From Coprobacillaceae bacterium (GTDB lineage: Bacteria; Bacillota_I; Bacilli_A; Erysipelotrichales; Coprobacillaceae): a stretch of DNA of 32,000 bases. Below are positions 5,817 to 21,694 of this stretch, one piece after another (the first letter of the stretch is position 1; every line of letters begins with the position of its first letter). The notes beneath the pieces were generated by a model. The model saw nothing but the letters and a program-made list of their open reading frames with translations, was not told the DNA's origin and did no database searches. The translations under genes were made by a program, and so were the position numbers. The DNA lies in contig OY780959.1 in NCBI GenBank assembly GCA_963675915.1, positions 570,001 through 602,000 on the forward strand, given 5' to 3'.

Positions 5817-5840
5817 AAATGGTTGATAGTGATAATGGTG

Positions 5841-6227: not shown

Positions 6228-6485
6228 ATGAAGAAAATAAGTATTAAAGAACTGGCATCCAAATACAAGCTGGTTCCCAATGAGATGATCACCTATATCA
6301 TCATCAATACCGCAACAAACAAGATCGGCTTTTTTGATGGTGGGTATGAGTATTTGGTATCCCGTACCAATCTTTCAAGACGGACTATTACTACCGCTAT
6401 AAAAAAATTGGTGGATTTAGGGTTGATTGAAAGAGAATATGTACAAAATAGAGAAATTTTATTTATTGCTAAGGAGATGAGCTAA
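6228..6485 (+). CDS. Small winged-helix DNA-binding protein (85 aa)
   Basis: GGGAGG RBS. LVSRTNLSRRTITTAIKKLVDLGLIERE is a typical wHTH recognition segment. Confidence 0.55.
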   Translation: MKKISIKELASKYKLVPNEMITYIIINTATNKIGFFDGGYEYLVSRTNLSRRTITTAIKKLVDLGLIEREYVQNREILFIAKEMS

Positions 6486-6817
6486 TGAGAAAAACACATA
6501 AAATTAAGACTATTATTGCAACTGTATTGGCTATGATATCTGTCAATATTGTAAGTGTCTATGCCGCCGGACCGGACGTGGAGGCGGCCAAGAGTCTGGT
6601 CAAACCATGGATTGATGGTCTGATCACTTTCATGTTGTGGTTGGTTCCGGGGATCTTGATTGTCTATATTGCCAGAATCGCAATCAAATATCTGTCAGCC
6701 AGCGAAGAAGAGCGTCAACGGATCAACACCTGGGACAAGATTAGTAAGGGGCTTATAATTGCGGTTGTAGCCGAGTCGATAGTAGCTATTATCAAGATAT
6801 TCGGATTCGCTTGGTAG
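6485..6817 (+). CDS. Small secreted two-helix membrane protein with VirB2/TrbC-like topology
   Basis: TAATG overlap with the upstream gene. Long signal peptide ending VYA|AG, then two hydrophobic helices separated by the charged loop SASEEERQRINTWDK. Confidence 0.45.
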   Translation: MRKTHKIKTIIATVLAMISVNIVSVYAAGPDVEAAKSLVKPWIDGLITFMLWLVPGILIVYIARIAIKYLSASEEERQRINTWDKISKGLIIAVVAESIVAIIKIFGFAW

Positions 6818-6853: not shown

Positions 6854-6873
6854 GGGTGGCAATTTTGCCACCC
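6854..6873. repeat. Palindrome family copy 2: GGGTGGCAATTTTGCCACCC
   Basis: Intergenic. It abuts the RBS (GGAAGGGAGAG) of the VirB6-like gene. Confidence 0.9.
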
Positions 6874-6893: not shown

Positions 6894-8732
6894 ATGTCGA
6901 TACCTGAGTTGATCAGAAGTCTGATTTGGGGAATTACATCATTATTTCTTAATATCATTGACTCATTATGGAATATTGCCAGGATGATTGTCGGTATGGA
7001 TTTTGCCAATCAGGAATGGATTTGGAGTTGGCTGAAGGTTTTGAATGTCTTCCTGATATTTTTTGTCATTGTATTTTCATTTAAGACTTTCATCAAGGCT
7101 TATTTCGATGACGATTACATGAACAATATAAATATCTCGAAATTGTTGATGAAACTGTTTATGGTTTTTTTCTTTATCGCCATAATGCCCCTGGGAATAC
7201 AAACGGTCAGTTCAATGTCGAGTCAGATGGCAAAAAACATTGGAACTTTTACCGGTGTGGGCGAGAGCAAGTTATCGACTATTATTGTCAATTCATCATC
7301 CATGGATCTGTCTAATATCGACGAGGAGTTTGCCGCCATGGGAGATGTGCTAAGTGACCAACTGGATAGTGCCAATGACAACATCCTTTCAGAGTCTAGT
7401 TGGGAGGAAATGAAAAGCCGAATAATTGATGGTTCCGCTTCATATTTGTACTCACAGATGCCTGAAAGTGAACGGGTTTCCGTCGCTGATGAGATCTATA
7501 AAACAACATATGATGAATATGTCGAATGGAAAGAGAGCATCAATTATGACAGTATTCTGGGGGACAGTTATTGGGTTAACGAGGATATCAATGATATCGA
7601 TATCAACAGTGGTGAGACCTCGGGAGAGTGGTATGACTATTTGATTGATAGTATCAGTTTTGGTTTCTCCGGAGATTTGGAGAAAGCATATTACTTTTTC
7701 CCTAGTTGGTCATCCCTGTTTCTGGTTCTGATAACATCGCTGGTTTTCTTGTTGATATTCATTGGTGTGATAATCCAGATGGCTCAAAGGATATTCAGCC
7801 TGGTATTGAAGGTGTTTTTGATGCCCTACGCAGTATCGACAATGGTTGATCCCGAGAGTAAAACATTTTCGGTATGGATCAAGTATATGGTGGCCGATGT
7901 ACTATCTAACTGGTTCCAATTATACTCGGTAATGTTCCTATTCGCTTTTATCGGAAATAACACTTTGGAGAATTTACTTGTAGGTAGTGGCCCGGTAACC
8001 ATAGAAGTGGAAATGACCAAACTGCTCCTTTTGATTGGTGGGTTGATGGCAATCTACACCAGTCCAAGTGGAATAGCCGCCATTCTTGGGGGTTCGGAAG
8101 TGTCAGCATCAAGTTCTCTAATGAATACGACCTCAATGCTGCGCATGGCATATAGTGGCATCGGAGCGGTTGGAACGGTGGGCGCCCTTGGATATGTGGG
8201 TTTAACATCAGGAGGAAATATGGGACTTAGAGGAATCAATAATGCAACCAGGGCAACGAGTGCTGTGGCGAATATGGTTACTGGAGGAAGTTACGGTAAT
8301 TCATTTGGCAGCAGCAATGGCATTGGTGGTCGGATTAAAAGCACTGGGCTTGGTAGTGCAATCTATAGTGGGTTGTACGGTGGATCGAGCGGCGATGCTG
8401 GTAGTGGTTCTGGAATCATGACGGCTAGGGAATTCAATGATTCGCCTACGCAAAGTCAAATGGAAAAAGCGAGCAACTTAGATATCAAAACAGAAGGCAT
8501 GAATAAAGGTCAGCTTGGAATCAAGATAGACCGGACCACCGATAACTTGAGAGGAGCATCAAACCACTTGAGAAACAATGAAAAATGGAACGTAAACAGT
8601 ATGACGACAAATTATCCCAGAGCCAGAAAAACGGCCAATACCATTGCCAAAGTGCATAGCAAGGTAAATACGATTTCCAAAAACAAAGTAACTCGAAGCT
8701 CACTGCCAATAAATTTTACGGATCGGAGATAA
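6894..8732 (+). CDS. Polytopic membrane protein, VirB6/TrbL-like T4SS channel component, with a Gly/Ser-rich C-terminal region
   Basis: At least five or six hydrophobic helices (for example VLNVFLIFFVIVFSF, LFLVLITSLVFLLIFIGVIIQM, LLLLIGGLMAIY). G/S-rich tail. It lies between the VirB2-like and VirB3-like genes. Confidence 0.55.
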   Translation: MSIPELIRSLIWGITSLFLNIIDSLWNIARMIVGMDFANQEWIWSWLKVLNVFLIFFVIVFSFKTFIKAYFDDDYMNNINISKLLMKLFMVFFFIAIMPLGIQTVSSMSSQMAKNIGTFTGVGESKLSTIIVNSSSMDLSNIDEEFAAMGDVLSDQLDSANDNILSESSWEEMKSRIIDGSASYLYSQMPESERVSVADEIYKTTYDEYVEWKESINYDSILGDSYWVNEDINDIDINSGETSGEWYDYLIDSISFGFSGDLEKAYYFFPSWSSLFLVLITSLVFLLIFIGVIIQMAQRIFSLVLKVFLMPYAVSTMVDPESKTFSVWIKYMVADVLSNWFQLYSVMFLFAFIGNNTLENLLVGSGPVTIEVEMTKLLLLIGGLMAIYTSPSGIAAILGGSEVSASSSLMNTTSMLRMAYSGIGAVGTVGALGYVGLTSGGNMGLRGINNATRATSAVANMVTGGSYGNSFGSSNGIGGRIKSTGLGSAIYSGLYGGSSGDAGSGSGIMTAREFNDSPTQSQMEKASNLDIKTEGMNKGQLGIKIDRTTDNLRGASNHLRNNEKWNVNSMTTNYPRARKTANTIAKVHSKVNTISKNKVTRSSLPINFTDRR

Positions 8733-8735: not shown

Positions 8736-9071
8736 ATGAATAAAGAAAACAACCTTGTATGTTATGTGATACCAAAGAATATCAAGAAAGGTAAGTTGTA
8801 TTTTGGAAGATATAAAATCAGCGATTTAATTATCTTAGGAACTTCCTTTCTGGTTATTTTCATCGGCACGGTAGTGAGTGTCACTATTTTTACTGGCGGA
8901 CTAATGCTTGCGTTTATTCTCTTGTTTTTGATTGTAGGAGGATCCGGTGTTGTGCTGACCACACCATTTTTCAATTATCATAACTTGATGGGATATCTAA
9001 AGGAGATAGTGGACTTCTTGAAATCGGACCGGAAGTATGTTTATGGCGGGAGGTATTATGAAAAAGATTAA
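8736..9071 (+). CDS. PrgI/TcpE-type (VirB3-like) small membrane protein
   Basis: YVIPKNIKKGKLYFGRYKISDLIILG followed by two long hydrophobic helices. It lies immediately upstream of the VirB4-related ORF. Confidence 0.6.
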   Translation: MNKENNLVCYVIPKNIKKGKLYFGRYKISDLIILGTSFLVIFIGTVVSVTIFTGGLMLAFILLFLIVGGSGVVLTTPFFNYHNLMGYLKEIVDFLKSDRKYVYGGRYYEKD

Positions 9072-9696
9072 TGAATCCAAAAAGAAAAAGCTGATTGAAA
9101 AACGCAAGAGCAAACTGAGAAAGACCTTCGAGTGGCTGTCAATCGAGAGCCTTGAAGATGATTACGTGGTTCTCAAAGAAAAGAACCAAAACTATTTTGT
9201 TAAAGGAATCAAAGTTGAACCCAAGAACATTTATATGATGAACGACATGGAGCGCAACCAGTTCATTGAATCCCTAACCAGCGCATTTAATAAAATCAAA
9301 TCGAAAATCTATTGGAAGTTCGTCTACAACACCCCAACGTTAGACAGACAGAACGATGAGCTGATCAAACGAATTGAGCAAAGCGACAACCAACGACTCA
9401 ACTACTTAGCCCAACTGTATCTTGATTTCCATGAGTGGTATGTCGATAACTTTTACGAGATTTCATTTTACCTGGTAGTAGTTGAGGAAGAAAAATATCT
9501 CGAGAAGGTATTTGATGATTTGTATAAATATATGAGAAATACCCAGATGGTGGTAAGACCGATGGTAAAGTCGGATTACAAGAATATGATTAAATATGAC
9601 TTTGATAATGATAATATCGATGAGTACTATTTCAGCCGGATGCTCAATTATGAAAGTTATCATTTCAATAATTTATTCAAAGAAAGTGAGGATTGA
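9058..9696 (+). CDS. VirB4 N-terminal-domain-like protein (212 aa) with no ATPase domain
   Basis: GGGAGG RBS at 9048-9053. Lys-rich N-terminus, then TFEWLSIESLEDDYVVLKEKNQNYFVKGIKVEPKNIYMMNDMERNQFIESL, which resembles the N-terminal domain of monoderm VirB4 proteins (TcpF, PrgJ, Tn916 Orf16 type). Confidence 0.6.
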   Translation: MKKINESKKKKLIEKRKSKLRKTFEWLSIESLEDDYVVLKEKNQNYFVKGIKVEPKNIYMMNDMERNQFIESLTSAFNKIKSKIYWKFVYNTPTLDRQNDELIKRIEQSDNQRLNYLAQLYLDFHEWYVDNFYEISFYLVVVEEEKYLEKVFDDLYKYMRNTQMVVRPMVKSDYKNMIKYDFDNDNIDEYYFSRMLNYESYHFNNLFKESED

Positions 9697-9698
9697 TT

Positions 9699-9812
9699 AT
9701 GTATATACCTAATGAGAACTGGGGAGACCTTGAACAAGACGGATACAATGAAGAAGAACTAGATGAAGTATTGTATATTGCGGTCGAAGAATTTGACGAA
9801 GAAGAGGGGTGA
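9699..9812 (+). CDS. Hyper-acidic 37-aa micro-ORF (not in the supplied ORF track)
   Basis: MYIPNENWGDLEQDGYNEEELDEVLYIAVEEFDEEEG has 15 D/E and no K/R/H. GTGAGGA RBS lies 6 nt upstream. Its stop is embedded in the RBS of the next gene. Confidence 0.5.
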   Translation: MYIPNENWGDLEQDGYNEEELDEVLYIAVEEFDEEEG

Positions 9813-9817
9813 GTTAA

Positions 9818-10795
9818 ATGGCTAAGAAACCAAGAAAAACTGATAAGGAGAAATATGAGGATTGGCAAAAGAAGATTGCCGATTTTTTTATCTCCGACCT
9901 GCAAAGAGTTAAGGATGATACTGAGAATGGGATAGAAAATACCCGACTTTCATGGAAAAAGGGTTGGGTTACTTTCATGCAAAAATCGATGGCTAGTGGC
10001 AAGGATTATTCAGGCAGCAATCAGATGCTGCTGACATTGGTGAACTATATCAAGGGTTATACTGATAGCCGCTGGGTCACCTATAATCAGATAATCCAGC
10101 ACAATAAGGAGTGCAACGAAGATGAGAAGTGGAATATCCCCAAAGAAAAGATCAGCGCCAAAGACGGTCATCTGTTTTCAATCCGGTATGTAAGTACCAG
10201 ATACTTGTATGAAAATGATAAAAAATATTATACCAAGAAACAGCGTGACGAAATGCTCAGAAAAAGCAAAGGTCAGATCAAGAAAGACGATTTCAGGGAA
10301 TTTTACAAAATAGGTTATAACAATGTTTACAACGTGAGTATTGTAGATGGAATTGCACCGGAGACAAGCATGGAAGTCGATTTCGATAACCAAGTGGTTG
10401 ACAAGCTAGTTTCCAATTTTTTGAAAGAAACCGGAATAGAATTGATACATGCGCAACAATCCAGCGCTTTTTATGAACCGGCGAGGGATCGGATCTGCCT
10501 TCCACTGCAGTCGAATTTCAATAATGAGCAAGGTTATTATTCGGTATTGCTTCATGAGGTGGGTCATTCGATTGGACATAAGGATAGGTTGAATCGAACC
10601 GGAGTAACCGGGATGGTTGATAAAACTGAATACGCTAGGGAAGAACTGATTGCGGAACTTACCAGCGTTCTATTGAACACCCGGTTCAATATCCATATTG
10701 ATGAAGACTTTGATAACAAGTATAACAACAATCTTGCTTATATTGAAAGCTGGATTCAAATTCTCAATGATGATGTAGCTAGCCATTTTATTTGA
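9818..10795 (+). pseudogene. ardC: ArdC-like antirestriction protein (ssDNA-binding N-domain plus HExxH zincin), 5' part; native sequence ends at 10773 and the last 7 codons plus the stop come from the transposon end
   Basis: WKKGWVTFMQ...YSGSNQMLL...RWVTYNQI (ArdC-N). LLHEVGHSIGHKDRLNR...YAREELIAELTSVLL (metallopeptidase). The frame is broken by the insertion at 10774. Confidence 0.8.
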
Positions 10796-10797
10796 TG
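10774..10797. repeat. Transposon left terminal inverted repeat TGTAGCTAGCCATTTTATTTGATG
   Basis: Matches the reverse complement of 14063-14086 at 22 of 24 positions. Confidence 0.85.
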
Positions 10798-10981
10798 CCA
10801 TCTAACCATAATCTAGTCATAATAAATAAAGGTCAATTCCAAATAATTTGATGAATTTTTCTTCAAATTGCTTGAGATTGACCTTTTGCTTTGTTATTTT
10901 ATTGGTAATAAATCTAGAGAAAGAAAAAATGAGAGACGCCACCACCAAGCAGTTTCTCTCATTTGCCATATAGACAAGAAT

Positions 10982-11536
10982 ATGATAACGTATCACGGAG
11001 TAAAAATCAATAATAAATTGATGAAGATTGATTCGCGGGCCAAACTCCAGGCCTATTATAATGAATTGGTTTCCAATATCAATCGTTTTTCCTTGAGTTG
11101 CGCTGGTGACTGCCAGGGCAATTTCATAATTCATGGTTATTATAACCGAAGGGTGAAACTGCCTTTTGGCTTTTTTAATTTGAGAATAATGCGGCTAAGA
11201 TGTAAGGATTGTGGCAGAACCCACGCAATTCTTCTTTCATGTTTGGTTCCATATTCAAGTATCCCGTTGGCTGTTCAAGTTGAGATTTCCATACATAAAA
11301 ATAATCAGAAACTATTAAAAGCCATTCTTGATCGAAATCCCTATATGTCTGAGTGTGAAATTTATAATGTTGTGAGCAGGTATATCAATGTTTGGCAGCA
11401 ACGTTTGATGTCGTTGAGAATTGAATCAAATGATATTAACCAACTTGTTGAAAGTTGTTTTTCAAATTATTTGATGCAGTTCATGCAATGTAGAAATACC
11501 ATAAATATCCTGTATACCATCAACCACATAGGATGA
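10982..11536 (+). CDS. Transposon-encoded zinc-ribbon protein (DUF6431-like); start uncertain
   Basis: Four Cys arranged C-x3-C ... C-x2-C (SCAGDCQGN...RCKDCGRTHAILLSCLVPY). It lies directly upstream of the transposase. The track start at 10868 is TTG inside the end repeats, so the first in-frame ATG was chosen. Confidence 0.5.
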   Translation: MITYHGVKINNKLMKIDSRAKLQAYYNELVSNINRFSLSCAGDCQGNFIIHGYYNRRVKLPFGFFNLRIMRLRCKDCGRTHAILLSCLVPYSSIPLAVQVEISIHKNNQKLLKAILDRNPYMSECEIYNVVSRYINVWQQRLMSLRIESNDINQLVESCFSNYLMQFMQCRNTINILYTINHIG

Positions 11537-11584
11537 GTTAAATAATCGATTCTATTAGTATATAGTGGGTGACGGAGGTATTAT

Positions 11585-12832
11585 ATGGATAAAAAAGAAC
11601 AAGAATACGTAGCGTTGATGCGCCATCGGATCATTCATGACATCATTACCGGAAATTATGATGCTGCATGGTCTAAGAATCAGGCGATTACGGAAGCTAC
11701 CAAGAAAGTCTATAAGAGTTTCGACAACCGTGATTTCACTGTCTCAAGCAGTACCATCTCCAGATGGATTGCTGCTTACGAAGAAAAAGGCTTCGATGGA
11801 TTGATTCCTCAAAAGCGGAGTGATTGTGGCAAGTCAAGAAGACTGGATGATGACATCGTTGAAACAATCAAATATTATAAGACAACCTATCCTAGATTGC
11901 CGGCAACTGTAATTTACGGCAAGTTGATTGAAAAGGGAATCATCAAGAAAACTGATGTTTCGCTATCAACCGTTAATCGATGTGTCAATCAGATAAAGTC
12001 GGAATTGCGTCTATCAAACAAGAAAGACATGCGCCGCTACGAAGTGCCCCATATCAATATGAACTGGGCTGGTGACAGTTCGGTCGGTCCTTACATAACC
12101 ATTAATGGCAAGAAAAACCGAACTTATATGATTGCCCTGATTGATGATGCTTCAAGGATGATCGTCCATCTTGATTTGTATTTGAATGACAACACAGTCA
12201 ATTTGATGGATACTATGAAAAGTGCGGTCACCAAATACGGAATTCCTGAGATGTTCAGGTTTGACAACGGCTCCAATTATCGAAATCACCAGATCAAGAT
12301 GATTGCAGCAAGGATTAATTCAACCATCAGCTACTGCAAACCGTACTCGCCGGAAGGAAAATCAAAAATTGAGCGGGTGTTTCGGACGATTAAAGATCAG
12401 TTCTTCGCCCAAATAAACATAAAAGATTACACAAACAATCTAGAAGGTTTGAAGCAGGATTTAAGCCAGTTCATCAATGATTACAACAACAAGGTGCATT
12501 CGTCTTTGAATGGATTGACACCTCATCAACGTTTTTTTCAGGAAAGCAATCTGATCAAAAGGCTTGATGATGACTTTATCGACAATACTTTCCTGTTCGA
12601 AGTAGAGCGGTCTGTCAGTACTGATTCGGTAATCAAAATAGATAATCGGGAATACGAGATTGATTATATCTATTCTGGTGAAAGGCATATGTTCCGATAT
12701 ACTCCGGACTTGGAAAACGTCTATATAGTTAACAAGAATACCGGCGAACTGGAACGGATTCACCTACTTGATAAAAACGCTAATTCAAAAGTAAAACGAG
12801 TGCAGCCAAAATTATGCGGAGGAGAAGATTAA
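11585..12832 (+). CDS. DDE (rve-type, Mu/TnsB/TniA-like) transposase
   Basis: GGAGG RBS. N-terminal HTH. Catalytic candidates are WAGDSS, RFDNGSNY and PEGKSKIERVF. The C-terminal segment VIKIDNREYEIDY is Mu-transposase-C-like. Confidence 0.85.
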   Translation: MDKKEQEYVALMRHRIIHDIITGNYDAAWSKNQAITEATKKVYKSFDNRDFTVSSSTISRWIAAYEEKGFDGLIPQKRSDCGKSRRLDDDIVETIKYYKTTYPRLPATVIYGKLIEKGIIKKTDVSLSTVNRCVNQIKSELRLSNKKDMRRYEVPHINMNWAGDSSVGPYITINGKKNRTYMIALIDDASRMIVHLDLYLNDNTVNLMDTMKSAVTKYGIPEMFRFDNGSNYRNHQIKMIAARINSTISYCKPYSPEGKSKIERVFRTIKDQFFAQINIKDYTNNLEGLKQDLSQFINDYNNKVHSSLNGLTPHQRFFQESNLIKRLDDDFIDNTFLFEVERSVSTDSVIKIDNREYEIDYIYSGERHMFRYTPDLENVYIVNKNTGELERIHLLDKNANSKVKRVQPKLCGGED

Positions 12833-13635
12833 TGGAAAAATATTGGACCAGATACGGATTGGAATTCAATCCGTTTATCAAGAACTCAAAGAATTTATTT
12901 ATTGAAACAAGTGAATACCAGGAATTGAAAGTACGCCTTAACAGCCTTTTTGAAATCAAAGGTTTCGGACTAATAGTCGGTGAACCTGGACATGGCAAAA
13001 CAACCATGATCAGGAACTATATCAAAACACTCCCCAAATCAGCTTACAAGATAATTTATTTGTCAATGTCGACCCTTACAGTCAAGGAATTCTATATGCA
13101 ACTGGCTGAGTCGCTGGATTTGACTCCTCGGTATCGAAAGAATGATCTGTTCAGGGAGATCCAATCAGCCATAAACCAGTTGATTTACGAAAAAAGGATT
13201 ACCCCGGTGTTTATCTTTGATGAATGTAATTACATGAATAACGCCATTCTTAATGATTTGAAGATGATCTTCAATTTTGATATGGATTCCAAGGATCATG
13301 CGGTAGTCTTGATGGTCGGATTGCCGACAATAACCAGGAACCTTAAATTGACCGCTCATGAACCACTGCGTCAGCGAATGATTATCAATTACAAACTGGA
13401 GCCGTTAAACAAAACTGAAAGTCTTGCTTATATCAAAGACAAGCTCCAAGGCGGAAAAACAATTCAAGAAGTGTTCAACGACAATGCCATTGAAGCAATC
13501 ATCAATGCATCCAACGGCACCTGTCGGGTTATTGATCGGATATGCGACCGGGCAATGTTTATCGGAGCAATCAGAAAAATCGAAGTAATTGATTCCGATT
13601 TAATCCTAGAAACAATCGAAGAGGTAGTAATTTGA
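12832..13635 (+). CDS. AAA+ transposition ATPase (TniB, TnsC or Tn552 p271-like)
   Basis: TAATG overlap with the transposase. GGAGGAG RBS. Walker A GEPGHGKTT. Walker B VFIFDECN. Confidence 0.8.
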   Translation: MEKYWTRYGLEFNPFIKNSKNLFIETSEYQELKVRLNSLFEIKGFGLIVGEPGHGKTTMIRNYIKTLPKSAYKIIYLSMSTLTVKEFYMQLAESLDLTPRYRKNDLFREIQSAINQLIYEKRITPVFIFDECNYMNNAILNDLKMIFNFDMDSKDHAVVLMVGLPTITRNLKLTAHEPLRQRMIINYKLEPLNKTESLAYIKDKLQGGKTIQEVFNDNAIEAIINASNGTCRVIDRICDRAMFIGAIRKIEVIDSDLILETIEEVVI

Positions 13636-13940
13636 TAATCGAATACTTCTGCAACTATGATGAAAAAACATGGGCCAACGAGATAGTAATAGTCTCGCAA
13701 AACCCAGATAAGTGTGAATTCCAGCTAAGATATGACGGCAATGAAATCGAAGTGATAGTAGGTAAATCAGCCAAAGGAAACTGGATTTGCATCCCGTTGA
13801 TGAAGCTGGGACTGGAACTATCATATTTCAAAGACAAATTTTGGAACAAGTCAGCTCTATTGCGCGAGATAGATCCAATCAGCAGCGAAGCCATATCACA
13901 AGCCATCTACAAATTAAACGAGTCAGGGATAATCGTCTAA
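13632..13940 (+). CDS. Transposon-encoded small protein (102 aa), unknown function; probable TTG start
   Basis: It overlaps the ATPase stop by 4 nt (TTGA). GAGG lies 7 nt upstream. No recognisable motif. Confidence 0.4.
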   Translation: MIIEYFCNYDEKTWANEIVIVSQNPDKCEFQLRYDGNEIEVIVGKSAKGNWICIPLMKLGLELSYFKDKFWNKSALLREIDPISSEAISQAIYKLNESGIIV

Positions 13941-14062
13941 CAGGCGATTATTTTCTTTCTCCTCTAAAACATCATTTCAAATAAACTGAATATCCCATTC
14001 AATTAATTTGAAGAACATCAAAAAAGGACCAAAAGAAGGCCCATATAATTTGAAGAATCATC

Positions 14063-14086
14063 CATCAAATAAATTGACTAGCTACA
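14063..14086. repeat. Transposon right terminal inverted repeat (CATCAAATAAATTGACTAGCTACA)
   Basis: Reverse complement TGTAGCTAGTCAATTTATTTGATG compared with the left end. Confidence 0.85.
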
Positions 14087-14543
14087 TGATGACCCAGGGA
14101 TCTTGATGGAGAGTTTAGACAAAGCCCTTGAAGGCTATAGCTACTTTTTAGAACATAGTGGCTTTGAACTTTATCAGGAATATTTTGATAACAATATTCA
14201 AGATGAACTGGCAGCAGCTAAAAAAGTGGTCCTGGAGTATTTGAATGATGAGTTCGATCAAATCCATACCAATGAAGTATTCAAGGATTTGGAACACGTC
14301 GGTGTTGCATTTACCACCACTGAAGACAGTGATCGGGAGATTCAGATAGAGGTGGACCTTAAAAATTTCAAACTTAATCGATACCTGGATAGCGAATTGA
14401 TTGAATCAGTAAAATTTGAAAGTTTAAGTGAGATGTCTGAAAAGTGTTTAAGTGCTCTCGATTTTTCGGATTTAACGTATATCGATGAAGGCATAACAAA
14501 AAAAAATAACTTCATCCATAATTCGATTCGAGATATTATCTAG
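14087..14543 (+). pseudogene. ardC: 3' part of the interrupted ArdC-like gene
   Basis: Removing 10774-14092 (the element plus one TSD copy) joins ...ESWIQILNDD to PGILMESLDKALEGYSYFLEHSG... in frame, open to 14543. Confidence 0.75.
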
Positions 14544-14712
14544 CATTGCCCTATGCACTAAAGGGGTGGTAAGTAATATATTTCAAAATAACGTAGCACA
14601 TAATAATTAAGAATTTCTTAAGATTGTATGGGTTGCCGGATATCACCTCAATCTATCGTTAGAATCGTAATATCCAAGTGTATCAGCCTCGAGTGATCCA
14701 GGTAATAAAAAA

Positions 14713-14741
14713 TTGACAATATGGCATATATGCCATATAAT
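14713..14741 (+). promoter_or_regulatory. Consensus sigma-A promoter (TTGACA, 17 nt spacer, TATAAT) with a 20-bp perfect palindromic operator (14719-14738)
   Basis: TTGACA at 14713-14718 and TATAAT at 14736-14741. ATATGGCATATATGCCATAT fills the spacer and overlaps the -10 element. It lies directly upstream of the TA pair. Confidence 0.65.
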
Positions 14742-14763
14742 GGAAATGGAGATATAGTATATA

Positions 14764-15129
14764 ATGGCAAGTAAAAAATTTGAAGTTGTTTTCTATGAGA
14801 CTGCAGACAAGCAGTGTCCGGTTGAAGAATTTATGATTGGCTTGGAGCCAAAGATGCGGGCCAAATTGGCAGGTATTCTTAAAATACTGCAAGACACTGG
14901 ACCGCTATTACGGGAACCGTATAGCAAAGCTTTAGGAGATGGTATTTTTGAAGTCAGAGGAAAAGTTGGTAGTAACATCACCAGGGTATTGTATTTCTTC
15001 TATTACGACGGAAAAATAGTTCTTACCAATGGATTTGTCAAGAAAACGAGCAAAACGCCAAAAAGAGAAATAGTTCTTGCCAAGAAATATCGCAAAGATT
15101 ATCAGGAAAGGTATGGTAACAAGAAATGA
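14764..15129 (+). CDS. Type II toxin, RelE/ParE superfamily (HigB or phage Gp49-like)
   Basis: 121 aa. ...EFMIGLEPKMRAKLAGILKILQDTGPLLREPYSKALGDGIFEVR...RVLYFFYYDGKIVLTNGFVKKTSKTPKREI. It overlaps the downstream HTH gene by 4 nt. Confidence 0.75.
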   Translation: MASKKFEVVFYETADKQCPVEEFMIGLEPKMRAKLAGILKILQDTGPLLREPYSKALGDGIFEVRGKVGSNITRVLYFFYYDGKIVLTNGFVKKTSKTPKREIVLAKKYRKDYQERYGNKK

Positions 15130-15407
15130 AAACTTTGGATAAATTTTTCGATGAACAAATGAAAGATGAAGATTTTCGAAATGAATATGAAAACCTGCAA
15201 CCTGAATTTGATATTATAAGAGCAATTGTGGATGCCAGGACTAGTCTGAATTTGACTCAAAAAGAGTTGGCCAAGATTACTGGAATCAATCAGTCTGATA
15301 TCAGCAAAATTGAAAACGGGACCAGGAATCCCAGCTTAAATATGTTGAAAAGATTGGCAGCGGGTATGAATATGAATCTAGAATTAAAATTTGTACCTAA
15401 AAAATAG
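15126..15407 (+). CDS. XRE-family HTH antitoxin (HigA-like)
   Basis: LTQKELAKITGINQSDISKIENGTRNPSLNMLKRLAAGMN is a canonical XRE HTH. Toxin-first gene order as in higBA. Confidence 0.75.
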   Translation: MKTLDKFFDEQMKDEDFRNEYENLQPEFDIIRAIVDARTSLNLTQKELAKITGINQSDISKIENGTRNPSLNMLKRLAAGMNMNLELKFVPKK

Positions 15408-15461
15408 TTCAATAAATTCATCATAAATGCGATGCTTAATATAGGCTCAATAGCAAACGCT

Positions 15462-15491
15462 AAAAAAATGCAGATGAAACTGCATTTTTTT
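15462..15491. terminator. Bidirectional Rho-independent terminator between convergent genes
   Basis: AAAAAAATGCAG, loop ATGAAA, CTGCATTTTTTT. Confidence 0.7.
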
Positions 15492-15614
15492 GCCTTAAAC
15501 TATAAAGAATATCGAGCTTGTTTGAAAAAGGAAAATGTACATGTCAAATATGGTACAAACTCAGATAATGTAAAAGTTGCTTAATTATCCATGTAACTAT
15601 TAGAACTGGCCGAA

Positions 15615-16451
15615 TTAGAAATATTTTCTTAGAGTATGGGCAATTCCATCTTCTTCGTTGGATAGAGTTATTTCATTGGCTATGGATTTCAAATCATCAA
15701 CTGCATTGGCCATTGCAACACCGATACCAGCATATTCAACCATCGATGCATCATTATGGCCATCACCAAAGGCAATCATTTGGTCACGATTATATCCCAT
15801 CGGTATTAGAACAGTGTCTAAAGCTTTTGCCTTGTCAATTCCGTTTGCGGTAAATTCAAAATAAAATGCGCCCGTGAACATACAATTGAGATTATCTTTG
15901 AATGGTTCTGCCATCGCTTGATAATTGTCAAGCAGGTACTCAGGATCACCGGCTGTTAAAATCTTGTTCAATGGATAATCGGCAAATTTTGCCAAATCAT
16001 CGATTTCACAAAGTTTAAATTTACCGCCACGTGATTCGTATTTGATTACATTGAAAGGTTCCCCTTTGACGTTGATGTGACAATCGAACACATTATTAAC
16101 AAACATATATTCGTCCTTGTCAATCATCGGTTTAACATTGAATTTCTTCATATGTTCCAAAACTTCCTGCCCCTGGGCAACTCTCATAGTTTCATTAAAT
16201 AGAATTTCATTGGTTTGACAGTTAATGACTTTTGAACCATTGAAACTTACTAGTAGACCATCATTTTTGTCCATTTCCAATTCCTTGGCAAAATCCACCA
16301 ATCCCGAAGTTGGTCTTCCTGATGCAAGAATAAGTTTAGAACCTTTGTTTTGCGCTTCAATTAGTGCTTTCTTGGTTTCTGGTGTAATGATTTTATCACT
16401 GTTAGTCAGAGTGCCATCTACGTCCAGTATTATCACTTTGATTTCTTTCAT
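15615..16451 (-). CDS. Cof-type HAD-IIB sugar phosphatase
   Basis: GAGGAGG RBS. IILDVDGTLTN...ASGRPTSG...FGDGHNDASM motifs. Confidence 0.85.
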   Translation of the reverse strand: MKEIKVIILDVDGTLTNSDKIITPETKKALIEAQNKGSKLILASGRPTSGLVDFAKELEMDKNDGLLVSFNGSKVINCQTNEILFNETMRVAQGQEVLEHMKKFNVKPMIDKDEYMFVNNVFDCHINVKGEPFNVIKYESRGGKFKLCEIDDLAKFADYPLNKILTAGDPEYLLDNYQAMAEPFKDNLNCMFTGAFYFEFTANGIDKAKALDTVLIPMGYNRDQMIAFGDGHNDASMVEYAGIGVAMANAVDDLKSIANEITLSNEEDGIAHTLRKYF

Positions 16452-16654
16452 TTGTGTTCCTCCTCTTACAACTGAATCATACCAGTTATTTTGGAAAAGT
16501 ATATACGGTGAAATGGAGTTGAAAAGTATTTCTCAAAAATTGATGGAATAATTGAATGAAATTGATAATTACTTTTCGATTGAGCTATCAAAAGAAAAGT
16601 ATGTAATAAAGTATGATAGTATTTTAGATATAAAATCATGTAAGGAGAAATTAA

Positions 16655-17488
16655 ATGGGTAAAATTATTTTTATTGATGTTGATGGAACGCTATTAAACT
16701 ATGAGAATAAGCTTCCAAAATCTGCTGAGGCGGCGATAAAATCAGCTCGAAAAAATGGTCATAGAGTTTACATCTGTACCGGGAGATCTCGAGCTGAGGT
16801 CTATCCGTATCTGTGGGATATTGGATTGGATGGTATGATTGGTGGAAATGGAAGTTATGTTGAAGATGAGGGTAATGTGGTTATGCATCAGCTTATATCG
16901 AAGGAACAGGCTAAACACATTGTTGATTGGCTCCTGGATCGAAAACTTGAATTTTATTTGGAAAGTAATAATGGTCTTTTCGCGAGCGAAAACTTTGAAA
17001 CTCGCGGTGAACCAGTTATGCAAGAATACTCAAGAAGGAAAGGAAAAGAAAATGCCAACAAACTCACTGTCAAAGATATCTATCCTGAGATGATCTACGG
17101 CGGGGAACTTTACCGGGATGATTTGAATAAGGTGAGTTTCATTCTTGAAAGCTATCAGGATCATCTTGATTCAATCGCTGAGTTTCCGGATCTGAAGCCT
17201 GGGACCTGGGGCGGTGTCGGAGAGATTGCATTGTTTGGTGACCTGGGGGTAAAAGACATCACCAAAGCGAATGCCATTAACCATCTCTTAGTTTACTTGG
17301 ATGCTGATCTTGAAGATACGATTGCCTTTGGGGATGCAAAAATTGATATCCCAATGCTGGAATATTGTAAAGTTGGAGTTGCAATGGGAAGTGGTGGTGA
17401 TGAAATAAAATCAATGGCTGATTATGTCACCGATGGTGTTGACGAAGATGGGTTGTACAATGCTTTTGTCCATCTCGGGCTGATTTGA
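16655..17488 (+). CDS. Cof-type HAD-IIB hydrolase
   Basis: AAGGAG RBS. IFIDVDGTLLN...CTGRSRAE...FGDAKIDIPM motifs. Confidence 0.8.
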   Translation: MGKIIFIDVDGTLLNYENKLPKSAEAAIKSARKNGHRVYICTGRSRAEVYPYLWDIGLDGMIGGNGSYVEDEGNVVMHQLISKEQAKHIVDWLLDRKLEFYLESNNGLFASENFETRGEPVMQEYSRRKGKENANKLTVKDIYPEMIYGGELYRDDLNKVSFILESYQDHLDSIAEFPDLKPGTWGGVGEIALFGDLGVKDITKANAINHLLVYLDADLEDTIAFGDAKIDIPMLEYCKVGVAMGSGGDEIKSMADYVTDGVDEDGLYNAFVHLGLI

Positions 17489-17663
17489 AATTGAATCGGT
17501 ATTAATCAAAAATATAATGATTAATATTTGCTCTATTGTCTTGATTTGCAATGGGGCTTTTTATTATTTCATTTTTCAATAATTCAAAATATCTGATTCT
17601 CGTGATGCCGTAGTAGTATAATAAAATATATATTTGAGGAATTTTAGAAAAGGGGTAATATCA

Positions 17664-18512
17664 ATGAATATATTTTTGCTATTGAAATCAGAAAAAATGT
17701 CTCCTAATGAAAAAATAGTGGCGGATTTCATTTTGGAACAGCCAACTGCATTCCTCAATATGAATGCAAAGCAGATTTCCAAAACATGTTTTGTTTCAGT
17801 GGCAACTATTTACCGATTATGTGAGCGACTAAATCTTGGCGGATTGTCGGAATTGAAATTGAAAGTTTCTAGTTCACTTGAGTCATATCTTCAACTGGAT
17901 GAAGGATTCGACTATGATTTCCCCGTTCAGGAAAATAACTCGCCAATTCAAATTGGTAACCAGTTGAGTGTTGACTACCAAAAAACTGTTGAAACAACTC
18001 TTAATCTTTTTGATGAAAAGGAAATCAGGAAAATAGTAAAAGCTATGGATAAGGCTGATGCAATAGATGTCTATACATCGGCTGGGAATATATATTTTGC
18101 TCAAAATTTCATGTTTCAAATGAATGAAATCGGGAAAACAGTAAATGTTCCCATTGAAGAGTACCATCAAAGATTATGTGCAGCTTCGAGTGATAAAAGG
18201 CATATTGCAGTAATTATATCATTTGGAGGGAGAGGTCTTCTGGTTGAAAATATTGCTAAAATATTAGTAGAAAATGGCACCCCTATTATTTTCATTTCGT
18301 CATTTGATTTTAAAATGTCTAATGTGAAAACAGACTTCAACCTCTATATGAGCCCATATGAAAATCACTATAAGAAGATATCCTCGTTTTCGACCAGGTT
18401 ATCTCTGCTTTATCTTTTAGATGTAATTTATACCTGTTATTTTGAACTAGATCATCAGAATAACATTGCCAAGAAATTGGATTATTATAGTAAAATAAGA
18501 AGGATCAAATAA
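17664..18512 (+). CDS. RpiR/MurR-family transcriptional regulator (HTH_6 plus SIS domain)
   Basis: AAAAGGGG RBS 8 nt before the ATG at 17664. IVADFILEQP...AKQISKTCFVSVATIYRLCERLNLGG HTH. SIS-like AIDVYTSAGNIYFAQ. Confidence 0.75.
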   Translation: MNIFLLLKSEKMSPNEKIVADFILEQPTAFLNMNAKQISKTCFVSVATIYRLCERLNLGGLSELKLKVSSSLESYLQLDEGFDYDFPVQENNSPIQIGNQLSVDYQKTVETTLNLFDEKEIRKIVKAMDKADAIDVYTSAGNIYFAQNFMFQMNEIGKTVNVPIEEYHQRLCAASSDKRHIAVIISFGGRGLLVENIAKILVENGTPIIFISSFDFKMSNVKTDFNLYMSPYENHYKKISSFSTRLSLLYLLDVIYTCYFELDHQNNIAKKLDYYSKIRRIK

Positions 18513-18567
18513 CAATATCAAAGAATAATTACGATACAATATATTTAGATAATATCTAGAATAAATT

Positions 18568-18592
18568 AGGCAATCTTGGATTGCCTTTTTCT
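18568..18592 (+). terminator. Rho-independent terminator after the RpiR gene
   Basis: AGGCAATC (18568-18575) / GATTGCCT (18579-18586) followed by TTTTT. Confidence 0.65.
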
Positions 18593-18661
18593 TATGTGAA
18601 AATGAAAGGGAGTTATAGCAAATGAGTTGCATTATCGAATTTGAAGAGTGTGAGGATAAAC

Positions 18662-20485
18662 ATGGAAAACAGTGAAATCAAAAAATTGAAATCAAAAATT
18701 GCCCCATTGAATCTAAGTTTTGGAAGAAATCATATACGAATGGGTGATAAATACCAACGGGTCATTACAGTAATTGAATTTCCTGACCGGTTCTATTCCG
18801 GTATTTTGTCAGGTCTAGTATCCAGCGGGGACCCGGATATCAAGGTTGAAATGGTGACCAGGCAAAGTGATTATTCGATTGCCAATCTGATCAACCGAGA
18901 GGTAAAAACCATGGAAATGGAATATCGAAATTCCAACGTCACGAATAAGGAGGCGTTGGCCCAAAAAATGGAAAGTCTTGAGGATTACATCAAGGAGCTC
19001 ATCAGAAGGAAAGATCGCACCTACAATGTGTTGCTAAATATTACGGTATCGGATCATAATCTAAACAAACTTAATGAGAAGACCAAAGATATCAAGGAGA
19101 ATCTAATAGCGTATGGATATAAGTCTGCGACAATAGATTTCAATCAAGAGAAGTTACTGAAGAAAACATCCGTCTGGTTCTACCACGATAATTACAATGA
19201 CGATATGAATTATAACCTGGGATGTTTGATGTCAGCCCAGAGTCTCGCGGGCCTATATCCTTTTATCTTCGACACCTTGGATGATGAACACGGACTGTTA
19301 TTGGGTCATGAACTCAATAATTTCGGCAAGATAGTATTTGATCAATTCTTCTACAAAAATAGCTATGAGCAGGCCAAAGTTTACAACCGTTTGAATGGGA
19401 ATATGATTGTCATCGGAGCCACCGGACAAGGAAAAACTACAACAGTAAATATGATCATGATGAATCATATGGTCAATCGTCGAAAGATACTGTGGATCGA
19501 TCCTGAAAATAAAATCAAAACATTGATAGAAAAGACCAATGGCTCGTTCTTCAATCTAGGGTCGAATAATGCGAGAATAAATATCTTTGATTTGAAACCA
19601 ATCTCCAGTGACGAAGACGAGGAAGTTGATATGTATAATACCGAGTTGGCCATTTACAATGTAGTTGAAGATATCAAAATCGTCTTAGGGTATCTATATC
19701 CGGATATAAAAGCTGAAACTCTTGCAATAATCGGTGATCTTGTAGTCAGGACTTATGAGTCGATAGGGATCGACTTCAAAACGAATTTCAAGTACTTGAA
19801 GGCTACCGACTATCCGACGTTCACTCATTTTTCTTCTATCGTCGATGAAAGAATTACCCAATACGAAAATATCAGTTCCGGAAATATTGAATACAACGCG
19901 TTGCGGGATATTCAAAACAAACTGGTGCCGATTCTAACGGAGTATGCCCGATATTTTGATGGCAGCACCACGATCAATACCGACGAAAATGCTAATCCGT
20001 TTATCGGCTTTGGAACCAAGATATTTTTCAATCAGACAGAAAAAGTGAGAAATGCGATCATGCATATCATCTTCCAGTTTGCCTGGTCCTTGTGTCTGGA
20101 TGAATCCGAATTCAGTGCATTCTGCATTGATGAAGCCCATCTAATGATCAATGAAGGAACAACTGCCAAGATGGTAGAACAGTTCATGAGACGCTCCAGA
20201 AAATACAATAACGCCACTATAATCTCTACTCAGGAGAGCAACGACTTTACCAATGAAGAGAACCTATCAAAAGGTAAGGCAATATTCAATAATGCCTGTT
20301 ACAAAATCATCATGAAACTCGAGCTTAACGGTATTAGTGATCTGAATAAATTGATGTATCTTACTGATGGTGAAAGTAATTTAATCGGCGATTTAAGCCA
20401 GGGAGAGGCTATTCTAATCGCTGGTAAGAAACGGATTCCAATAGCGGTAAGGTTGACACCTGAAATGCTGTCACTAATGTCATGA
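18662..20485 (+). CDS. virB4: VirB4-family T4SS ATPase (central and ATPase domains only)
   Basis: GAGGA RBS at 18653-18657. IAPLNLSFGRNHIRMGDKYQRVITVIEFPDRF (VirB4 mid-domain pattern). Walker A GATGQGKTT. Walker B AFCIDEAH. Confidence 0.85.
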   Translation: MENSEIKKLKSKIAPLNLSFGRNHIRMGDKYQRVITVIEFPDRFYSGILSGLVSSGDPDIKVEMVTRQSDYSIANLINREVKTMEMEYRNSNVTNKEALAQKMESLEDYIKELIRRKDRTYNVLLNITVSDHNLNKLNEKTKDIKENLIAYGYKSATIDFNQEKLLKKTSVWFYHDNYNDDMNYNLGCLMSAQSLAGLYPFIFDTLDDEHGLLLGHELNNFGKIVFDQFFYKNSYEQAKVYNRLNGNMIVIGATGQGKTTTVNMIMMNHMVNRRKILWIDPENKIKTLIEKTNGSFFNLGSNNARINIFDLKPISSDEDEEVDMYNTELAIYNVVEDIKIVLGYLYPDIKAETLAIIGDLVVRTYESIGIDFKTNFKYLKATDYPTFTHFSSIVDERITQYENISSGNIEYNALRDIQNKLVPILTEYARYFDGSTTINTDENANPFIGFGTKIFFNQTEKVRNAIMHIIFQFAWSLCLDESEFSAFCIDEAHLMINEGTTAKMVEQFMRRSRKYNNATIISTQESNDFTNEENLSKGKAIFNNACYKIIMKLELNGISDLNKLMYLTDGESNLIGDLSQGEAILIAGKKRIPIAVRLTPEMLSLMS

Positions 20486-21123
20486 AGAAATTGATAATTT
20501 CTGCAACTGCGTTTTGTTTTGTATTCATTATGTTTATATTTCTAGTGGCAGTGATTGGTGATGAAAGTGAAAGCAGCATCGAAAAAACGACGAATAATTG
20601 TAATAGTAGTTTAGTAGAAAATTTTATTGAGTACGCAACAAGTGAATACGAAACCTGCGGCAGTGTACTCGGTGGAGACAAATATCGTGAGTGGTATATC
20701 GGCAGCATTGACAATGAGCCATGGTGTGCCACTTTTGTCAGTTATATTGCCGCCAAGACCGGTATCTTGTATACCGTGATTCCAAAATTCCAATCGTGTG
20801 ATGCAGGAATTAGATGGTTCAGTGAAAACGATCAATATTTCAACACTACTGAATATGGTGGTAGTTATGATGAACCTTCACCTGGTGATATCGTATTTTT
20901 CTCACAAGTTCATGATAAAAATGACAGTACCCATGTAGGAATCGTTGTGTCATATGAAAATGGAGAAGTAACTACGATTGAAGGCAACTCGGGAAACCAG
21001 ATTAAAATGAAGTCATATAACATTAATAGTAAATTTATAATCGGATATGCAGTTCCTGATTACACAAGTTCAACCGTAATCAGGTCAAATTTAACGAGAG
21101 GAGGTGAAGATGCAAATGATTAA
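20482..21123 (+). CDS. Membrane-anchored CHAP-domain peptidoglycan hydrolase (VirB1 analogue)
   Basis: 4-nt overlap with virB4. N-terminal TM helix. Catalytic EPWCATFVSY and THVGIVV...TIEGNSGN. Confidence 0.8.
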   Translation: MKKLIISATAFCFVFIMFIFLVAVIGDESESSIEKTTNNCNSSLVENFIEYATSEYETCGSVLGGDKYREWYIGSIDNEPWCATFVSYIAAKTGILYTVIPKFQSCDAGIRWFSENDQYFNTTEYGGSYDEPSPGDIVFFSQVHDKNDSTHVGIVVSYENGEVTTIEGNSGNQIKMKSYNINSKFIIGYAVPDYTSSTVIRSNLTRGGEDAND

Positions 21124-21661
21124 TAAAAATAGATTTTCAGTTTTGGGGATAGTAGGAGTAATCTTGGTCAGTCTTGTGGGATGTTACTTAATTACAGCCA
21201 AAACGGATGATGATAATCAAATCCCCGTATATGCGGCCAACGATTTGAAAGTGGTAAATAAAGAATACTTATCCAATCATGGTTTGGATGAAGTTGGCCA
21301 GAATATGCTTTATGAAAATATACTCTGGCTTCTAAGAGAAGAACGCATACAGATGATGGTGGATTATACGCAGGTTACATTCTATGATATTGATTTGCAT
21401 GAAGACAATCTTACTTATTTTTATTGCATGCTTGATGATGAAAAAGGAACGATTCTGGAATGTCAAATTGAGATGTCTGATGAGTACGGTGTTTTCAACA
21501 ATATCGATGTGGGCATACTTTCTAGTATCGATAATCTCTATAAGGAATCAACTAAAACAGGAATCAAATACATCGAGTTATATGACGGGATAAGTTATCA
21601 AAAAATATTGTTGAATTATGTTGAAAACGAGGCACCTGACGGAATTGATCCCGAAGGTTAG
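21110..21661 (+). CDS. Putative lipoprotein of the T4SS cluster (possible VirB8-like role; function unproven)
   Basis: GAGAGGAGG RBS. Lipobox LVGC in VILVSLVGCYLIT. Confidence 0.5.
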   Translation: MQMINKNRFSVLGIVGVILVSLVGCYLITAKTDDDNQIPVYAANDLKVVNKEYLSNHGLDEVGQNMLYENILWLLREERIQMMVDYTQVTFYDIDLHEDNLTYFYCMLDDEKGTILECQIEMSDEYGVFNNIDVGILSSIDNLYKESTKTGIKYIELYDGISYQKILLNYVENEAPDGIDPEG

Positions 21662-21674: not shown

Positions 21675-21694
21675 AGGTGGCAAAATTGCCACCT
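21675..21694. repeat. Palindrome family copy 3: AGGTGGCAAAATTGCCACCT
   Basis: 14 nt after the stop of the lipoprotein gene. It is the only copy followed directly by a T-run (TTTTA). Confidence 0.9.

Follow-up and report, generated by a model that had tools for sequence, protein, structure and literature searches.

VirB4 is the ATPase common to all type IV secretion systems (T4SSs) and is treated as a single protein. In a 32,000-nucleotide stretch of the genome of a Coprobacillaceae bacterium (contig OY780959.1, positions 570,001 to 602,000; hereafter, the window), two open reading frames (ORFs) on the forward strand, 9058..9696 and 18662..20485, each resemble a part of VirB4 and lie 8,965 nt apart, with other genes between them (the wedge, 9697-18661). 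The window is the transfer region of an integrative conjugative element (ICE) of an Erysipelotrichales-type gut bacterium, and its T4SS is of the kind carried by the plasmids pLS20 and pCP13. A first-pass annotation, made from the sequence alone, had proposed that a naturally bipartite or once-fused VirB4 was separated by cargo and that the T4SS genes beyond the cargo were insulated from the upstream operon; its coordinates, motifs and gene list all proved correct. The question that the locus raises is whether it holds a broken gene or a motor protein that is ordinarily made from two genes.

In this paper we compare the window with related loci and with known conjugative systems. The two-gene VirB4 is real, old and widespread, and is visible in database models (PF26593, "TraC-like"). 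We conclude with good confidence that VirB4 is naturally two genes here and that layered cargo has pushed them apart, the locus being an enlarged version of the state of its relatives and not a broken gene. A two-gene or split VirB4 was not described in the literature searched, an absence that is no proof of novelty.

Two ORFs as parts of one VirB4

The ORFs at 9058-9696 (VirB4-N, 212 aa) and 18662-20485 (VirB4-C, 607 aa) are two parts of one VirB4, the N-terminal part and the remainder, and together make 819 aa. Colinear matches to the NCBIfam model NF045975 and to fused relatives bear out this proposal of the first-pass annotation. NF045975 describes the VirB4 of Mycoplasma ICEs (Mbov_0397 family, 894 positions) and served purely as a yardstick of colinearity. 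Three ORFs of the window match it in order: the VirB3-like ORF 8736-9071 at model positions 2-94 (E 1.8e-3), the ORF 9037-9696, which is VirB4-N read from an alternative ATG at 9037, at positions 93-301 (E 1.6e-6), and the ORF 18641-20485 at positions 287-884 (E 1.3e-68). The scores of the three window ORFs (231.6, 26.2 and 16.1 bits, in descending order) do not reach the equivalog cut-off of 590 bits, and by this measure the ORFs are not members of the NF045975 equivalog family.

VirB4-C begins MENSEIKKLKSKIAPLNLSFGRNHIRMGDKYQRV and has a GAGGA ribosome-binding site in front. It carries a Walker A motif (GATGQGKT, residues 252-259) and a Walker B motif (AFCIDE, residues 486-491), matches the Pfam families AAA_10 and P-loop_TraG as well as NCBIfam VirB4 families, and over residues 242-602 matches the C-terminal domain of VirB4 in PDB 4AG5 (E 4e-29). 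In a word-indexed search its homologues fell into two length classes, 605-625 aa and 855-892 aa.

VirB4-N aligns with residues ~15-215 of fused relatives of 826-892 aa (phmmer E 1e-14 to 4e-28). A search of 1.84 billion representatives with VirB4-N returned 62 clusters; stand-alone proteins (~180-295 aa) make up about 40 of them and fused proteins (818-892 aa) 12, with E 3.4e-36 for the best match of the fused kind. A Pfam scan of the VirB4-N ORF reported no family, although the protein database assigns PF26593, TraC-like, to it, as to stand-alone proteins of this type. The AF2 model of VirB4-N (pLDDT 77) opens with a Lys-rich helix at the N terminus that leads into an alpha/beta domain, and the top PDB matches of this model in Foldseek are to TrwK/VirB4 of R388 (prob 0.99), a predicted likeness of fold that is supportive only. 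The window thus holds both an N-terminal and an ATPase domain of VirB4 but not a single polypeptide of ~800 aa. TrwK of R388 and the VirB4 of Thermoanaerobacter pseudethanolicus, whose C-terminal domain is 4AG5, are single chains, whereas the window has two. The split lies inside the classical N-terminal half, after ~210-250 residues, and not at the boundary between the N-terminal and C-terminal domains.

Split and fused VirB4 among relatives

We scanned 45 genome loci carrying relatives of the ATPase part, all from Erysipelotrichales, by ORF calling with profiles and hidden Markov models (loci are designated L001 and so on). In about 17 of these the VirB3-like gene is immediately followed by a fused VirB4 (839-891 aa), and at least 18 have the two genes split and adjacent, mostly with an ATGA overlap (or an overlap of 8 nt) and with a Shine-Dalgarno sequence that falls within the 3' end of the upstream gene. 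The split-adjacent arrangement is carried by Thomasclavelia cocleata, T. saccharogumia, Traorella, Erysipelothrix and Breznakia, among others, and also by the very prevalent element of Thomasclavelia ramosa. Only the window and the loci closest to it showed genes that are split and separated by more than 3 kb. The first-pass annotation had held that its reading would be refuted if close relatives routinely shared the gene order and transferred normally; as to architecture, they do share it. Fused VirB4s were recorded at L012-L018, L020-L023, L026, L030, L035, L038 and L041. At L034 (9884-11839) a VirB4-C of 651 aa groups with the fused forms, and no N-domain was detected in the 10 kb upstream.

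The split point is identical across the split forms. It falls in a variable linker between FENxxINDYYFSRG and KSKxAPxxL, and only this linker is missing. VirB4-N (~200 aa in the relatives, with a VirB4-C of ~610-660 aa) is always found directly after the VirB3-like gene. Between the window and L049 the dN/dS ratio is 0.035 for VirB4-N (dS 0.44) and 0.026 for VirB4-C, compared with 0.08-0.11 for the VirB3-like, VirB6-like and pilin-like proteins, and the identity of VirB4-N to that of L001 is 74%, against ~60% for VirB3 and VirB6. After VirB4-C, VirB4-N is the most conserved of the T4SS proteins compared. Its dN/dS and its identity to L001 indicate a conserved, selected gene and not a relic; judged by these ratios, VirB4-N is under strong purifying selection.

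In neighbour-joining trees of the ATPase part of VirB4, the window falls with L049, L050/L051, L001/L002 and L004 in a subclade with a bootstrap of 100%, and this separated subclade is the sister of the adjacent-split loci L005 and L006 (bootstrap 99.5%). Since the sister group is already split, the separation arose once, on a split background. Of the two origins offered by the first-pass annotation, a naturally bipartite VirB4 is upheld, by the adjacent-split loci and by pLS20 and pCP13, while a once-fused gene parted by the cargo is not, as the fission long predates the wedge. When the pLS20/pCP13-type VirB4 is taken as the outgroup, the fused Erysipelotrichales VirB4s nest within the split forms in the neighbour-joining tree, from which a secondary re-fusion of both genes would follow, though the bootstrap of the fused group is only 21%.

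A duplicated junction was also considered at the seam. The last 15 nt ahead of virB4-C (GAAGAGTGTGAGGAT) are similar to the 3' end of the VirB4-N ORF (AAAGAAAGTGAGGAT), but local alignment compared with shuffled sequences gave p ~0.2, which points to a chance likeness of Shine-Dalgarno-like sequences.

The same three segments in conjugative plasmids

The gene order of the window is that of pCP13 of Clostridium perfringens, pcpB6 - pcpI - pcpJ - topA - pcpB4 - pcpK - pcpB1. In both, VirB6 is followed by a small protein with two transmembrane segments, a protein of ~210 aa, inserted DNA foreign to the T4SS, VirB4 and then a peptidoglycan hydrolase. PcpI (93 aa), PcpJ (214 aa, "hypothetical" in the paper) and PcpB4 (632 aa), encoded in the region L052 6112-11219, match NF045975 at positions 3-83, 95-279 and 304-893, the same three segments as the window ORFs. 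In pCP13 the genes pcpJ and pcpB4 are themselves parted by topA (2.1 kb). The insert of the window is far larger, and that of pCP13 is one gene, without the toxin-antitoxin pair, metabolic genes or transposon that the window has; pCP13 is moreover a plasmid, whereas the element of the window is an ICE, and protein sequence identity between them is low. Conjugation of pCP13 is reported at ~10^-1 per donor (PMC8941779, citing Watts et al. 2019), so that parting of the VirB4 genes by another gene is compatible with efficient conjugation.

PcpJ-like proteins were found in 269 plasmids of Bacillus, Clostridium, Priestia, Listeria, Enterococcus and others. In the four plasmids inspected (Bacillus mycoides, Listeria, Enterococcus faecium and Paraclostridium sordellii), the PcpJ-like protein lies directly between DUF5592 and a VirB4 of ~635-660 aa, and the gene order is that of the window. 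A profile of 16 Erysipelotrichales N-domain ORFs aligned with the PcpJ family in hhalign (prob 96.4%, E 1e-9, 150 columns). A tblastn search of the plasmid collection with the VirB4-N of the window gave no match; the link to the plasmids was made through the pCP13 gene table and profiles.

Genes 49-54 of pLS20 of Bacillus subtilis encode an extended VirB6 (49), DUF5592 (50), a 192-aa protein (51), a VirB4 of 631-633 aa (52), a VirB8-like protein and VirB1. Genes 50, 51 and 52 match NF045975 at positions 13-95, 91-276 and 304-893 (L058 10206-13006), and the single-sequence likeness of the window's VirB4-N to gene 51 is weak. In the gene table of PMC8557374, genes 50 and 51 bear the label "unknown" and gene 52 that of "putative VirB4". 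A MobL-type relaxase and an adhesin with a thioester domain are common to pLS20 and the window. Genes 51 and 52 are immediate neighbours, 7 nt apart, whereas the halves in the window are 8,965 nt apart, and pLS20 has conAn antitermination at the start of the operon, a counterpart of which was not found in the window. The order VirB6 - DUF5592/VirB3-like - protein of ~200 aa - VirB4 - cell-wall hydrolase, together with a MobL/MobP-type relaxase and a VirD4 coupling protein, places the transfer genes of the window with the pLS20/pCP13-type module.

In pIP501 and pRE25 the genes TraC(B3) - TraD - TraE(B4) encode a 127-aa transmembrane (TM) protein, a 209-aa protein and a 653-aa protein, in the order and sizes of the window. 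The first-pass annotation had suggested this comparison, and the layout is indeed alike: TraE matches NF045975 at positions 294-892 only and is thus a short-form VirB4. No similarity was detected by hhalign between TraD (TrsD/TraD family, NF041427) and the N-domain and PcpJ profiles (prob <1%). The window ORFs are also colinear with the fused VirB4s of Erysipelotrichales and Mycoplasma ICEs (839-894 aa), which are single polypeptides; the Mycoplasma model contains the VirB3-like segment as well.

Contents and build-up of the wedge

The wedge begins with an acidic micro-ORF (9699..9812, + strand, 37 aa), whose start lies 2 nt after the stop of VirB4-N and which directly precedes a gene for the anti-restriction protein ArdC; homologues of 39-47 aa precede ArdC in L049, L001, L004 and L061. 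The 5' part of ArdC (9818..10795, +), with an ssDNA-binding ArdcN domain and a zincin metalloprotease domain, MPTase-PolyVal (Pfam E 4e-30 and 4e-11), has 59% identity to residues 1-323 of the intact ArdC of L001, and the 3' part (14086..14543, +), which encodes the C-terminal 146 aa at 14103-14543, has 39% identity to residues 327-458 of the same protein. ArdC is intact in L049, L001, L004, L051 and L061; in the window it is interrupted after approximately residue 319 by a 3.3-kb transposon (10775..14085, +) with 23-bp terminal inverted repeats (GTAGCTAG...) and a 5-bp target duplication, ATGAT, at 10770-10774 and 14086-14090. The transposon encodes DUF6431, an rve-type DDE transposase (415 aa), an AAA_22/TniB-like ATPase (273 aa) and DUF6618, and no near match to it was found in the plasmid collection. 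Its empty site is seen in L049, where homology to the window breaks at 10774.

Beyond ArdC, a perfect promoter (TTGACA-17-TATAAT, 12/12; 14713-14741, +) stands in front of a toxin-antitoxin (TA) pair, a Gp49/HigB-like toxin (14764-15129, +; Pfam Gp49 E 2e-22) and an XRE antitoxin (15126-15407, +; HTH_3 E 6e-15). These are followed by a Cof-type HAD phosphatase on the opposite strand (15615..16451, -; Hydrolase_3 E 5.5e-60), a second Cof-type HAD phosphatase (16655..17488, +; Hydrolase_3 E 2.4e-56) and an RpiR/SIS regulator (17634..18512, +; HTH_6 E 6e-13, SIS E 1.6e-7).

The relatives carry different genes at the same place. Between the halves, L049 has micro-ORF - ArdC - SF1 helicase (903 aa); L001/L002 have a 146-aa ORF - micro-ORF - ArdC - Fic; L004 has ~2.5 kb of ORFs - micro-ORF - ArdC - two ORFs (87 and 284 aa); L061 has three ORFs - micro-ORF - ArdC, and then virB4-C after 51 nt; and L051, whose contig starts inside the stretch, has ArdC - 46-aa ORF. 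The window, with micro-ORF - ArdC::transposon - TA pair - HAD (-) - HAD - RpiR, has the largest wedge of the subclade. The micro-ORF and ArdC lie between the halves in every member of the subclade whose contig covers that stretch; in the short contigs L050 and L051, only ArdC of the two is visible. The spacing from VirB4-N to ArdC ranges from 0 to 2.5 kb across the relatives. More distant members of the family have ArdC at other places in the element, either ahead of the pilin gene, or between VirB6 and VirB3, or downstream. The nucleotide homology that the window shares with L049 (94%) ends at 14464, inside the 3' end of ArdC, with 89% identity over 14086-14464, and begins again 4 nt before the start codon of virB4-C. 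As unrelated genes occupy the same backbone position in close relatives, the wedge is an ordinary ICE cargo hot spot. That it was not one simple insertion, as the first-pass annotation had held, follows from the presence of the micro-ORF and ArdC throughout the subclade, the varying cargo, and the transposon with its 5-bp duplications in ArdC.

L049 and L061 are two related ICE copies on one 2.57-Mb contig (ERZ21878204 ctg9560c), ~400 kb apart. The identity of their VirB4-C to that of the window is 98% and 80%, respectively; their cargo differs and occupies different slots of the wedge.

Transcription signals before virB4-C

Three terminator-like hairpins lie in the wedge. One is bidirectional, between the convergent genes (15462..15491; dG -14.7 kcal/mol, z -4.6), and one precedes virB4-C by 70 nt (18568-18586, with a T-run to 18592, + strand; dG ~-10); both had been pointed out in the first-pass annotation and are good candidates. 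The other, after the second HAD gene (17530-17557; dG -13.9, z -5.8), is absent from its list. In 18593-18661 of the + strand no promoter with at least 9/12 matches was found among the matches listed, in agreement with that annotation. A scan of the window against Rfam found no RNA family at the gathering threshold.

A terminator-like hairpin also lies 60-95 nt before virB4-C in each of L049, L051, L001 and L004, the sequences of these hairpins being mutually unrelated. Because they are found in all four relatives examined, hairpins at this place are usual for the subclade and nothing particular to the window. The pLS20-type conjugation operons contain multiple internal terminators, which are read through by conAn antitermination (PMC8557374, PMC8191782). 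The insulation of the distal T4SS genes that had been proposed is therefore not established, given the hairpins in the four relatives, the transfer of pCP13 and the read-through by conAn. In a direct comparison, ORF 90-458 of the window had no similarity to the pLS20 coding sequence 2564-3082, which lies at the position expected for gene 28/ConAn1.

A perfect palindrome of 18 bp, GGTGGCAA(WW)TTGCCACC, occurs in five copies in the window (5048-5065, 6855-6872, 21676-21693, 24231-24248 and 24277-24294), where 0.03 would be expected by chance. All of these are intergenic, in most cases 10-35 nt ahead of the start of a major cistron (o239, VirB6, VirD4), and the majority have no T-run behind them. 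The palindrome is also found in L001 (1464, 4315, 6393, 7466) and L004 (1852, 8790, 9961), and there each module of the wedge is bounded by it: copies follow VirB4-N and ArdC, and another stands immediately ahead of virB4-C. Its possible roles are those of an operator, of an RNA stabiliser or attenuator, and of a recombination hot spot.

A proposed history and its alternatives

Under the explanation that we favour, a naturally two-gene VirB4 pushed apart by cargo, T4SSs of the pLS20/pCP13 kind would encode VirB4 as a VirB3-like protein, VirB4-N and VirB4-C. In an ancestor of the subclade the acidic micro-ORF and the ArdC module would have come to lie at the seam between VirB4-N and VirB4-C, and the spaces on either side of ArdC would then have served as cargo slots, filled differently in each relative: nearly empty in L050/L051, with Fic in L001/L002, with the helicase in L049, with genes before ArdC in L061, and with the TA pair, HAD genes and RpiR gene in the window. 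The 3.3-kb transposon would have entered the ArdC of the window later, and with it the gap reaches 8,965 nt. The N-terminal domains of VirB4 in R388 mediate dimerisation and contact VirB3 and VirB8 (PMC12857230). VirB4-N may likewise dock both on VirB4-C and on the membrane protein that resembles VirB3 and so rebuild the N-terminal domain, supplying the membrane, VirB3 and dimer contacts that this domain supplies in R388; the ATPase, together with the middle domain, would come from VirB4-C. Translational coupling would set a 1:1 output of the two proteins in most relatives; the subclade of the window would have given this coupling up, virB4-C having its own GAGGA site. Transcription of virB4-C and the genes downstream would depend on read-through of the terminators, perhaps helped by conAn-like antitermination, or on a weak promoter that escapes recognition.

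Several observations weigh against this explanation or parts of it. The physical association of VirB4-N with VirB4-C is something we infer from homology to the fused proteins, and the TM-scores of the Foldseek matches are low (~0.3-0.4). In the neighbour-joining tree the fused group has a bootstrap of only 21%, from a run in which very distant pairs gave undefined distances, and we claim no direction of change, whether fission or fusion. Between the upstream operon and virB4-C stand three terminator-like hairpins and an antisense gene, with no recognisable promoter. The window yielded no ConAn1-like protein, though it may not include the start of the operon, and the palindrome is absent from the wedge in both the window and L049, so that the window lacks it before virB4-C.

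The most substantial alternative is that the element is a decaying, transfer-defective ICE in which the wedge has cut virB4-C, the CHAP gene and the genes downstream off from the transfer promoter; this is the insulation put forward in the first-pass annotation. The hairpins at 15462-15491, 17530-17557 and 18568-18586, with no promoter-like site listed in 18593-18661, would fit such a state, as would the inactivation of ArdC by the transposon, the IS66 transposase and truncated YobI-like NTPase at the right end of the window, and a wedge that is the longest of its subclade. All T4SS ORFs of the window are nevertheless intact, and the dN/dS ratios against L049 are very low, though these reflect past selection and not the present state. 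A hairpin precedes virB4-C in each relative examined, even in the minimal L051; pCP13, by the account cited above, achieves efficient transfer although a 2.1-kb gene parts its VirB4 halves; and pLS20-type operons bypass their internal terminators (PMC8557374). On balance we regard a defective element as unlikely.

It seems less probable still that VirB4-N is an independent accessory protein and that the 607-aa protein alone is a functional, naturally short VirB4. In its favour, annotations of pLS20 (gene 52), pCP13 (pcpB4) and the pIP501-type TraE treat a VirB4-like ATPase of ~600-650 aa as the entire VirB4, translational coupling has been lost in the clade of the window, and the VirB4-C of L034 has no N-domain detected within 10 kb. 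Yet the N-domain is covalently joined, with end-to-end alignment, in about 17 related loci, it is always kept directly after the VirB3-like gene, and its conservation (74% identity to L001, where VirB3 and VirB6 have ~60%; dN/dS 0.035) speaks against this reading. That the two ORFs sum to a full-length VirB4 with foreign DNA between them could also suggest a recently fused virB4 that the wedge physically broke on insertion, leaving a disrupted gene whose halves are still open by chance. The break, however, is the exact gene boundary of at least 18 insertion-free loci, the nearest outgroups L005 and L006 are adjacent-split (with the bootstrap of 99.5% noted above), each half has its own start codon and ribosome-binding site, and no duplicated junction sequence is present (p ~0.2). 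We consider this last explanation scarcely credible.

The two-gene VirB4 pushed apart by cargo may be one case of a wider arrangement. In many Gram-positive T4SSs (those of Erysipelotrichales ICEs, of pLS20, pCP13 and the Listeria and Enterococcus plasmids, and possibly of pIP501), VirB4 may be an obligate multi-chain motor, with its first N-terminal subdomain a free subunit of independent dosage; the gene seam would then be a privileged slot in which anti-restriction genes and other cargo can settle without harm to transfer, marked in part of the clade by the 18-bp palindrome. We put this forward tentatively, as a generalisation that has nearly as much to favour it as to oppose it.

A naturally detached, selected N-terminal subdomain would permit a direct test of whether this part of VirB4 serves docking on the membrane and VirB3 or dimerisation. 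It also suggests a probable function, that of the VirB4 N-terminal domain, for the "unknown" gene 51 of pLS20 and the "hypothetical" pcpJ of pCP13, with gene 50 of pLS20 and pcpI of pCP13 corresponding to the VirB3-like segment. For annotation, a Firmicutes VirB4 of ~610-650 aa should be called neither complete nor truncated before the upstream ORF has been checked. The wedge suggests that, in this clade, a transfer operon can accommodate cargo, promoters, terminators and an antisense gene between the halves of an essential motor, and it raises the question of read-through or antitermination.

Organization of the transfer region

The transfer module genes that flank the wedge are all on the + strand. 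At their head is a thioester/SpaA-type adhesin of 1,499 aa (514-5013) with many internally repeated domains, followed by small proteins that include an SSB-like and an HTH protein (5097-6485). A pilin-like small T4SS protein with two TM segments (6485..6817, 110 aa) has a weak Pfam T4SS_pilin match, and its position is kept in the relatives. Next come a VirB6-like polytopic membrane protein (6894..8732, 612 aa; NCBIfam MMCAP2_0566 E 3e-16, Mbov_0396 ICE TM E 5e-9, weak TrbL_4) and the VirB3-like protein with two TM segments (8736..9071, 111 aa), which has a weak TcpE match and holds the position of DUF5592 in pLS20 and pCP13. The first-pass annotation had named the flanks of the VirB4 ORFs as VirB3-like upstream and CHAP downstream, and both identifications stand.

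Downstream, the start of a CHAP/NlpC-P60 cell-wall hydrolase in the role of VirB1 (20482..21123; Pfam CHAP E 2.5e-11) overlaps the stop of virB4-C. It is followed by a membrane-anchored protein of 185 aa (21104..21661) with counterparts at the same position in L001 and L004 (phmmer ~1e-23), by two small proteins, by a MobL/MobP relaxase (23033-24229; MobP3 E 4e-39, or MobP2) and by a VirD4 coupling protein (24314-26344; T4SS-DNA_transf/TrwB).

L049 starts with an adhesin of equal length (1,499 aa) in which Pfam recognises thioester (TED) and SpaA domains; the T. ramosa element likewise opens with an adhesin gene. A pentapeptide-repeat protein of 474 aa (26337-27761) overlaps and directly follows the VirD4 gene and has the same place in L049. 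Toward the right end of the window (29555-30316 and the region 30410-31981), an ORF for a YobI-like P-loop NTPase covers no more than the first 156 of the 363 positions of the profile and looks truncated; immediately after it, on the opposite strand (given as -), is an IS66-family transposase. The GC content falls to ~0.29-0.31 just ahead of the YobI-like ORF.

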